Source: Candidatus Amunia macphersoniae (GTDB taxonomy: Bacteria > Chloroflexota > Dormibacteria > Aeolococcales > Aeolococcaceae). Taken from it: a stretch of 64,000 nt of DNA. The notes beneath the pieces were generated by a model. It saw nothing but the letters and a program-made list of their open reading frames with translations, had not been told where the DNA came from and made no database searches. The position numbers and the translations under genes are program-made. Location: contig JAEKNN010000026.1 in NCBI GenBank assembly GCA_016464795.1, positions 5,059-69,058 of the forward strand. The letters are read 5' to 3'. Below are positions 49,039 through 49,060 of this stretch, one piece after another; position 1 is the first letter of the stretch, and the number at the start of each line of letters is the position of its first letter.

Positions 49039-49060
49039 CGGTTAAGACCTCGTCAAGCAC
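49039..49060 (+). promoter_or_regulatory. Candidate PHO box: GGTTAAG-N4-GTCAAG (units 11 bp apart) in divergent region between phosphoesterase/propeller gene (46759-48948) and receiver gene
   Basis: Identical architecture to site at 52362-52379. Confidence 0.45.

Follow-up and report, generated by a model that had tools for sequence, protein, structure and literature searches.

In the 64,000-nucleotide stretch of DNA analysed here (the window), we found nine sites built from head-to-tail copies of the short word CTTAAC(C) with an 11-bp period, and we judge it probable, at roughly 80%, that they are Pho boxes of this Candidatus Dormibacterota genome. This reading draws on the phased repeats, the Pho-type genes behind them, the geometry relative to the -10 hexamers, the conservation in relatives, and the PhoB/PhoR-like pair in the pstSCAB-phoU cluster. 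An earlier note on this DNA had proposed a candidate lineage-specific PHO box, of which the PHO box part stands, with repeats that are phased, confined to promoters and conserved, but the lineage-specific part does not, because the core of the unit equals the cyanobacterial SphR box CTTAACCT, as that consensus is quoted in PMC1906773.

The phosphate gene island

Genes were mapped by third-codon-position GC content together with Pfam. The window (68% GC) contains a phosphate island with a kinase, pstSCAB-phoU and a regulator, a glycerophosphodiesterase (GDPD), ppk, ppx, and genes of the PF04185 family, and the island also holds a histidine phosphatase, a CHAD-domain protein, a ROK kinase, and a NUDIX hydrolase. 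Between 40413 and 52315 lie five PF04185 (phospholipase C / acid phosphatase) genes, interspersed with a Na/Ca exchanger and a receiver-only regulator. The genes most relevant to the sites are as follows.

25216-26250, minus strand: PhoR/PnpS-like histidine kinase, divergent from pstS
26445-31485: pstS-pstC-pstA-pstB-phoU and an OmpR-type response regulator
30727-31485, plus strand: OmpR/PhoB-family response regulator, the presumed binder, last gene of the preceding cluster
31510-32508: GDPD
49126-49518: receiver-only regulator, adjoining one site and without a DNA-binding domain

Phased repeats in the window

The earlier note had described an exact pair, GGTTAAG and GTCAAG, at two places, and a re-reading of the sequence located it at 49040-49046/49052-49057 and 52362-52368/52374-52379, with the hexamer starts of GTTAAG and GTCAAG 11 bp apart and in register at both (from 49041 and 52363). 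The related pairs GGTTAAT/GCTTAAC at 26328/26339 and GGTAAAG/CGTAAAG at 46593/46604 are present as it gave them; a third pair, claimed at 40062/40073, exists, but the position was 10 bp off (GCTTAAC at 40072, GGTTAAG at 40083). The distances to gene starts, which had been put at 60-120 bp, were roughly right, with values of 100-116 bp for pstS (start 26445), 31 bp for the NUDIX gene, and 67, 82-93 and 48-96 bp for the phosphoesterase genes.

Within the window, the exact 17-mer pattern GTTAAG-N5-GTCAAG had two matches against 0.00 expected from 100 dinucleotide shuffles, and with two mismatches there were six matches against 0.9 expected, including a third phased unit at 49030, the pair at 46594, and a new site at 31470. 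The degenerate pattern STWAAS-N5-STHAAS had 5 matches in the window against 0.01 expected. We also carried out a blind, composition-corrected enumeration of all hexamers at periods of 8-14 in the window's 22 intergenic regions, in which the top rank went to CTTAAC at period 11, present in 4 regions where 0.05 were expected (p=2.5e-7). The proposed tandem direct repeats at helical-turn spacing were recovered at the 11-bp period only. An uncorrected count of phased hexamer dyads was swamped by GC-rich words, and the enumeration is informative only after composition correction.

The two exact copies (49041 and 52363) have 12 of 12 unit positions in common and only one of five linker positions. 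No longer repeat joining these two copies was found, and an extended duplication or mobile repeat was therefore rejected as their origin. A known RNA family over any of the sites was likewise rejected, with no Rfam match in the window.

Orientation and promoter architecture

On the functional strand, in the direction of the gene that follows, the sites consist of 2-4 copies of CTTAAC(C) with an 11-bp period; three of the sites in the earlier note precede minus-strand genes and had been read on the non-functional strand. Scanning both strands of the 64 kb for CTTAAC-N5-CTTAAC with up to 2 mismatches revealed nine distinct sites, all of which (9/9) lie directly upstream of a gene start and are oriented at the gene. 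The genes behind them are pstS, the glycerophosphodiesterase, the NUDIX gene, four PF04185 phosphoesterase genes, and a lipoprotein gene, in agreement with the suggestion that the motif accompanies Pho-type genes. Features missed at first were the third phased unit at 49030, units 3-4 at pstS, and three further sites (a three-unit array at 31459-31486, 40292-40319, and 52715-52731). One of the nine, that of GDPD, overlaps the final codons of the regulator gene, and the site at 52715, at first seemingly wholly coding, precedes the likely true lipoprotein start, ATG 52784. The sites and their candidate -10 hexamers are listed below.

26329-26367, plus strand: pstS Pho box, four phased units GTTAAT / CTTAAC / CGAAAA / GACAAC, in the kinase-pstS divergent region
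26379-26384, plus strand: pstS candidate -10 CAGCAT, 11 bp past the last unit; AGCAT kept in 7/8 loci
31459-31486, plus strand: GDPD Pho box, CTGAAC / CTCAAC / CTTAAC, covering the last codons and TAA stop of the response regulator
31498-31503, plus strand: GDPD -10 TAGGCT, 11 bp past the box and 6 bp ahead of GTG 31510
40056-40089, minus strand: NUDIX promoter, CTTAAC / GTTAAG (perfect palindrome)-N11-TAGGTT; ATG 40042
40292-40336, plus strand: 1034-aa phosphoesterase promoter, AATAAC / CATAAC / GGCAAC-N11-TAGCGT; weaker units, same geometry
46577-46610, minus strand: split phosphoesterase promoter, CTTTAC / CTTTAC-N11-TAGGGT
49013-49057, minus strand: 729-aa phosphoesterase promoter (site of the earlier note), CTTGAC / CTTAAC / CTTATC-N11-AACCAT
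49008-49003, minus strand: 729-aa phosphoesterase, alternative -10 TAGCCT
52335-52379, minus strand: promoter of the phosphoesterase operon (393/377-aa and 537-aa genes), CTTGAC / CTTAAC / CACAAT-N11-TAGCCT
52715-52731, plus strand: lipoprotein site, CTTACC / CATAAC, 69 bp ahead of the probable ATG 52784; weak -10 TGTGCT at N11

Counted over 22 units, the consensus is C17 T15 T16 A18 A20 C18 c11, and position 8 is divided among A6, C10, G4 and T2. Three or four units were recognised at the pstS, GDPD, 1034-aa, 729-aa, and 393-aa phosphoesterase promoters, and only two at the NUDIX, split phosphoesterase, and lipoprotein promoters. A TAGnnT hexamer follows exactly 11 bp past the last hexamer (10 bp past the 7-mer) in 5/8 promoters, and weaker nAnnnT hexamers occupy the -10 place in two more of the eight; in intergenic DNA, TAnnnT occurs at 0.0027 per position. 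The -10 assignments are weak for pstS (CAGCAT), the 729-aa phosphoesterase (AACCAT), and the lipoprotein (TGTGCT). The NUDIX site, and in part units 1-2 of pstS, can also be read as inverted repeats. No box was found within 3 mismatches in the ppk/ppx divergent region or upstream of the kinase, whose conserved -10, TATGCT, is 39 bp from the pstS box.

Since the GDPD start codon lies 6 bp past the -10 hexamer, the GDPD transcript is probably leaderless. The three units of its box encode the C-terminal tail (..LNETSTSA) and TAA stop of the response regulator; in one relative that has no GDPD gene at this place, the regulator stop is TGA.

Conservation in related genomes

Relatives of PstS in reference genomes were 63-84% identical in seven Candidatus Dormibacterota metagenome-assembled genomes (MAGs), with the next relatives, at about 40%, in Eremiobacterota, which assigns the window, itself part of a MAG, to Dormibacterota. 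The synteny from AspRS to ppx was kept across the Dormibacterota loci. Alignment of the upstream regions revealed the pstS box in 8/8 Dormibacterota loci in spite of a mean identity of only 52%, with invariant blocks of TTAA in unit 1, CTTA in unit 2, and ACAAC in unit 4; unit 1 begins with G in 5/8 loci. Across about 135 kb of Dormibacterota loci there were nine sites within 2 mismatches, six of them at pstS, two at GDPD, and one elsewhere.

Where GDPD follows the regulator (the window and loci L004, L005, and L028), CTTAAY and a TAnnnT at N11-12 were both retained, and the divergent locus L007 has its own copy at GDPD, GTTGAC-N5-CTTAAT, in intergenic DNA. Of the three loci without GDPD, L002 and L006 show a decayed proximal unit and -10, and in L003 the units persist but the -10 is gone.

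For the 393-aa phosphoesterase, seven orthologue loci were recovered (61-71% identity), and the picture is more mixed. Three of them (L114, L115, and L116) have a sense-oriented site upstream of the orthologue. L114 and L115 contain no other site within 2 mismatches; the second site of L116 precedes a pstS-like gene. The full architecture is present in L116 (CTTGAC / CTTAAC / GACAAC-N11-TAGATT-N7-GTG), and in L119 a CTTAACC in sense orientation is paired with a weaker unit. In the remaining 3/7 (L117, L118, and L120) a TTAA-core dyad is opposite in orientation (GTTAAG/ATTAAG/GTTAAC-N5-GCRAAG), with no recognisable -10 at the usual spacing upstream of the phosphoesterase. Conservation of the box at this promoter is only partial, and the additional orthologue loci weaken the claim for it.

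As a control we used 644 kb around phospholipase C (PLC) genes from lower-GC organisms of other phyla. These loci came from a metagenome scan with the 537-aa phosphoesterase, and their PLC genes, at most 55% identical, are unfit for footprinting. In the control, 11 sites fell within 2 mismatches and not one within 1 mismatch, and the density of sites was roughly 9-fold lower than that of the window.

Two pstS promoters from Eremiobacterota (L026, 9799-9815, and L029, 7336-7352) read CTTAAC-N5-CATAAT-N10-TAnnnT, suggesting the same type of box in this neighbouring candidate phylum.

The presumed regulator and its kinase

The regulator encoded at 30727-31485 consists of a receiver and a winged helix (Pfam Response_reg and Trans_reg_C), and its best solved relative is RegX3 (2oqr, E=4.7e-61). 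On the NCBIfam PhoB model it scored 229 bits, under the cut-off of 296, with a tied score for YycF, and the kinase scored 274 bits for PnpS and 264 bits for PhoR, both under their own cut-offs. With equivalog scores below cut-off and the YycF tie, the orthology of both proteins rests largely on gene context.

Over its full length the regulator shares 40% identity with E. coli PhoB. The recognition helix (within residues 200-233) is KTVDVHIRWLREKFE and the wing is TVFGVGYRF. In the alignment with E. coli PhoB, W208 and F227 of the regulator fall opposite R201 and R219, and both W208 and F227 were kept in all Dormibacterota orthologues examined, including the regulator of L116. The two arginines of PhoB reportedly contact bases, and, if they do, the replacements would fit a different DNA word.

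With only 344 aa, the kinase matches PhoR/PnpS beginning at about residue 55 of those proteins, and it seems to be without the N-terminal membrane-spanning part. A GTG at 26277 is a possible start codon, and the TATGCT hexamer precedes it by a few bp.

Comparison with known Pho boxes

PHO boxes are composed of 11-nt direct-repeat units with a species-dependent consensus, CTGTCAT in E. coli and GTTCACC in Streptomyces (PMC4415409). The closest counterpart of the unit described here is the SphR box of Synechocystis PCC 6803, for which Su et al. 2007 (PMC1906773, citing Suzuki et al. 2004) give an 8-bp repeat of consensus CTTAACCT, in at least three tandem copies with 3-bp linkers. As described there, it is identical to our unit over positions 1-7 (CTTAACC), has the same 11-bp period (8 bp plus the 3-bp linker) in head-to-tail arrays of about three units, and is found upstream of pst, phosphatase, and nuclease-type genes; compared with that description, position 8 here is not T, and several promoters have two recognisable units only. 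The E. coli PhoB box shares with our sites two or more 11-bp direct-repeat units (7 conserved and 4 variable positions; PMC4415409, PMC1906773) and a pstS promoter with four units, and it sits 10 bp upstream of the -10 (PMC1906773), just as the boxes here stand in for a -35 element and end 10 bp before a -10 of the TAnnnT type, but the unit itself is CTTAACC instead of CTGTCAT. Streptomyces coelicolor PhoP boxes are also made of a variable number of 11-nt direct-repeat units in a high-GC genome (PMC4415409, PMC2275107), whereas their core GTTCACC is unrelated to CTTAACC, and the sites are not of the actinobacterial type; the earlier note had pointed to the same difference from the Streptomyces unit, correctly (PMC4415409). 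Unlike that of the cyanobacterial SphR system, the host here belongs to a non-photosynthetic candidate phylum, with 68% GC.

A further likeness is to Bacillus subtilis, in which PhoP boxes are TT(A/T/C)ACA repeats about 11 bp apart. These have a TTAAC-like core and a roughly 11-bp phasing in common with our sites and differ in the flanks and in the helix residues of the regulator. The Bacillus and cyanobacterial boxes together suggest that a TTAAC-type box may be widespread in Terrabacteria. Mycobacterium RegX3, of the SenX3-RegX3 system, is a phosphate-responsive regulator, and it is the closest solved structure to the regulator here, but its helix DVHVKRLRSKIE retains an arginine where our regulator has W208.

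Alternative explanations

The main rival to Pho boxes is that the sites are operators of a different OmpR-family or other tandem-binding regulator with a non-phosphate role, for example in membrane-lipid turnover or envelope stress, and that the pst-linked regulator binds elsewhere. The tied and sub-cut-off NCBIfam scores for YycF/WalR and PhoB would allow this, the majority of the targets are phospholipase-C-like, and the receiver-only regulator gene at 49126-49518 adjoins one of the sites. However, the best-conserved instance of the box is the pstS promoter, in 8 genomes, pstS and GDPD are canonical Pho genes in a cluster that also has phoU, ppk, and ppx, and the receiver-only protein is without a DNA-binding domain; we regard this rival as unlikely. 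Still less probable, in our view, is that RNA polymerase itself reads the units as promoter elements, for instance as the -35 box belonging to an alternative sigma factor. Such elements would account for the fixed spacing to the -10-like hexamers, and CTTGAC does contain the -35-like TTGAC. Sigma-70 and ECF sigma factors use a spacing of 16-18 bp, but here the -10 follows the last hexamer by 11 bp and the preceding unit by 22 bp, both outside that range. A 2-4-fold tandem array with an 11-bp period is, moreover, typical of binding by the OmpR/PhoB family (PMC4415409).

The sites that can be read as palindromes (CTTAAC-N5-GTTAAG at 40073-40089 and GGTTAA-N7-TTAACC at 26328-26346) could be symmetric sites for a dimeric repressor, unrelated to the direct repeats. 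The TTAA core is its own reverse complement, the two hexamers of the NUDIX site form a perfect 6+6 inverted repeat, and the copies of pstS unit 1 that start with G (5/8) fit this explanation as well. Against it, the sites at 46594, 49030-49057, 52352-52379, and 31459-31486 are unambiguous direct repeats, unit 1 of pstS in L005 is CTTAAC and thus a direct repeat, and the palindromic sites have the same spacing to the -10 as the direct-repeat sites, leaving this explanation very improbable and slightly behind the sigma-factor one. A compositional artefact might be suspected, as intergenic DNA is less GC-rich, AT-rich hexamers may cluster there in a 68% GC genome, and the pattern was defined after being seen. 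Yet the composition-corrected blind search still gave p=2.5e-7, only at period 11, orthologous promoters kept the sites in genomes whose PstS is 63-84% identical, and in the less GC-rich 644-kb control the sites were roughly 9-fold sparser. An origin by chance or composition is effectively refuted.

Proposed regulation and significance

If the sites are Pho boxes, the operators would be 2-4 head-to-tail 11-bp units, each with a conserved C-T-T-A-A-C-(C) and a variable linker, and the proximal hexamer would end 11 bp before a TAnnnT -10 (10 bp for the 7-bp CTTAACC), so that the box would stand where a -35 element is otherwise expected. When phosphate is limiting, the OmpR/PhoB-type regulator (30727-31485) would receive a phosphoryl group from the PhoR-like kinase (25216-26250), occupy the units in head-to-tail fashion, and bring in RNA polymerase. 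The predicted targets, which would be induced, are pstSCAB-phoU with the response regulator, the glycerophosphodiesterase, the NUDIX/ROK operon, the lipoprotein, and four promoters driving the five PF04185 phospholipase-C/acid-phosphatase-type genes. We infer which protein binds, that it acts by activation rather than repression, and that phosphate is the signal.

A broader and more tentative scenario, which we consider possible but doubtful, combines an ancestral TTAAC-type box widespread in Terrabacteria (Bacillota, Cyanobacteria, Dormibacterota, and some Eremiobacterota) with a Dormibacterota PhoB-type regulator that carries W208/F227 in place of R201/R219, and with the recruitment of the end of the regulator gene as the box of a leaderless gene. 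If true, this regulator would be another way, on the protein side, of reading a known DNA word.

Members of the Dormibacterota (candidate phylum AD3) abound in nutrient-poor soils, and none that is cultured and genetically tractable is known. Our literature search found no paper tying Dormibacterota to a Pho box or Pho regulon. A credible Pho box may make the phosphate-starvation regulon of this phylum predictable from MAGs alone. Within the window, the predicted regulon is dominated by the five phospholipase-C/acid-phosphatase-type genes, the glycerophosphodiesterase, and the high-affinity Pst transporter, which points to scavenging of lipid and organic phosphate. The sites would also add a data point for CTTAACC as a phosphate operator word outside cyanobacteria. 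The known mechanism of Pho regulation is unchanged by these results, and the box would be an ordinary regulatory element in a new lineage, that of an uncultured soil bacterium.

Further observations on the gene neighbourhood

The adjacent ROK protein was considered as a repressor acting at the palindromic NUDIX site and rejected, as it has no DNA-binding domain; its ROK domain spans residues 15-329 of 333 and leaves no room for an N-terminal one. The called starts of ppk (minus strand) and ppx (plus strand) are about 11 bp apart (36469-36481), with no Pho box near; either the starts were miscalled or the promoters of the two genes are embedded in adjacent genes. A 454-aa protein at 54744-56108 had no family match.

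The lipoprotein at 52784-53890 (plus strand) has the lipobox LTAGC and no significant Pfam match, its sole weak match being Mala_s_1-like (E=0.002), and it may be an uncharacterised member of the Pho regulon. The PF04185 phosphoesterase at 44561-46527 (minus strand) consists of two overlapping ORFs in different frames, with the N part (45421-46527) covering profile positions 1-190 and the C part (44561-45766) positions 197-355. This is a frameshift, arising from either a pseudogene or an assembly error in the MAG, and the promoter retains its two-unit box. The 393-aa phosphoesterase was 100% identical to the 377-aa NCBI protein 'MAG: phosphoesterase [Candidatus Dormibacteraeota bacterium]' over the whole of the latter. 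Finally, the 729-aa phosphoesterase gene contains internal tandem repeats (46960-47760, minus strand; three families) with a spacing of about 150-153 bp, suggesting that the C-terminal half of the protein is made of a repeated module of roughly 50 residues, possibly propeller-like.
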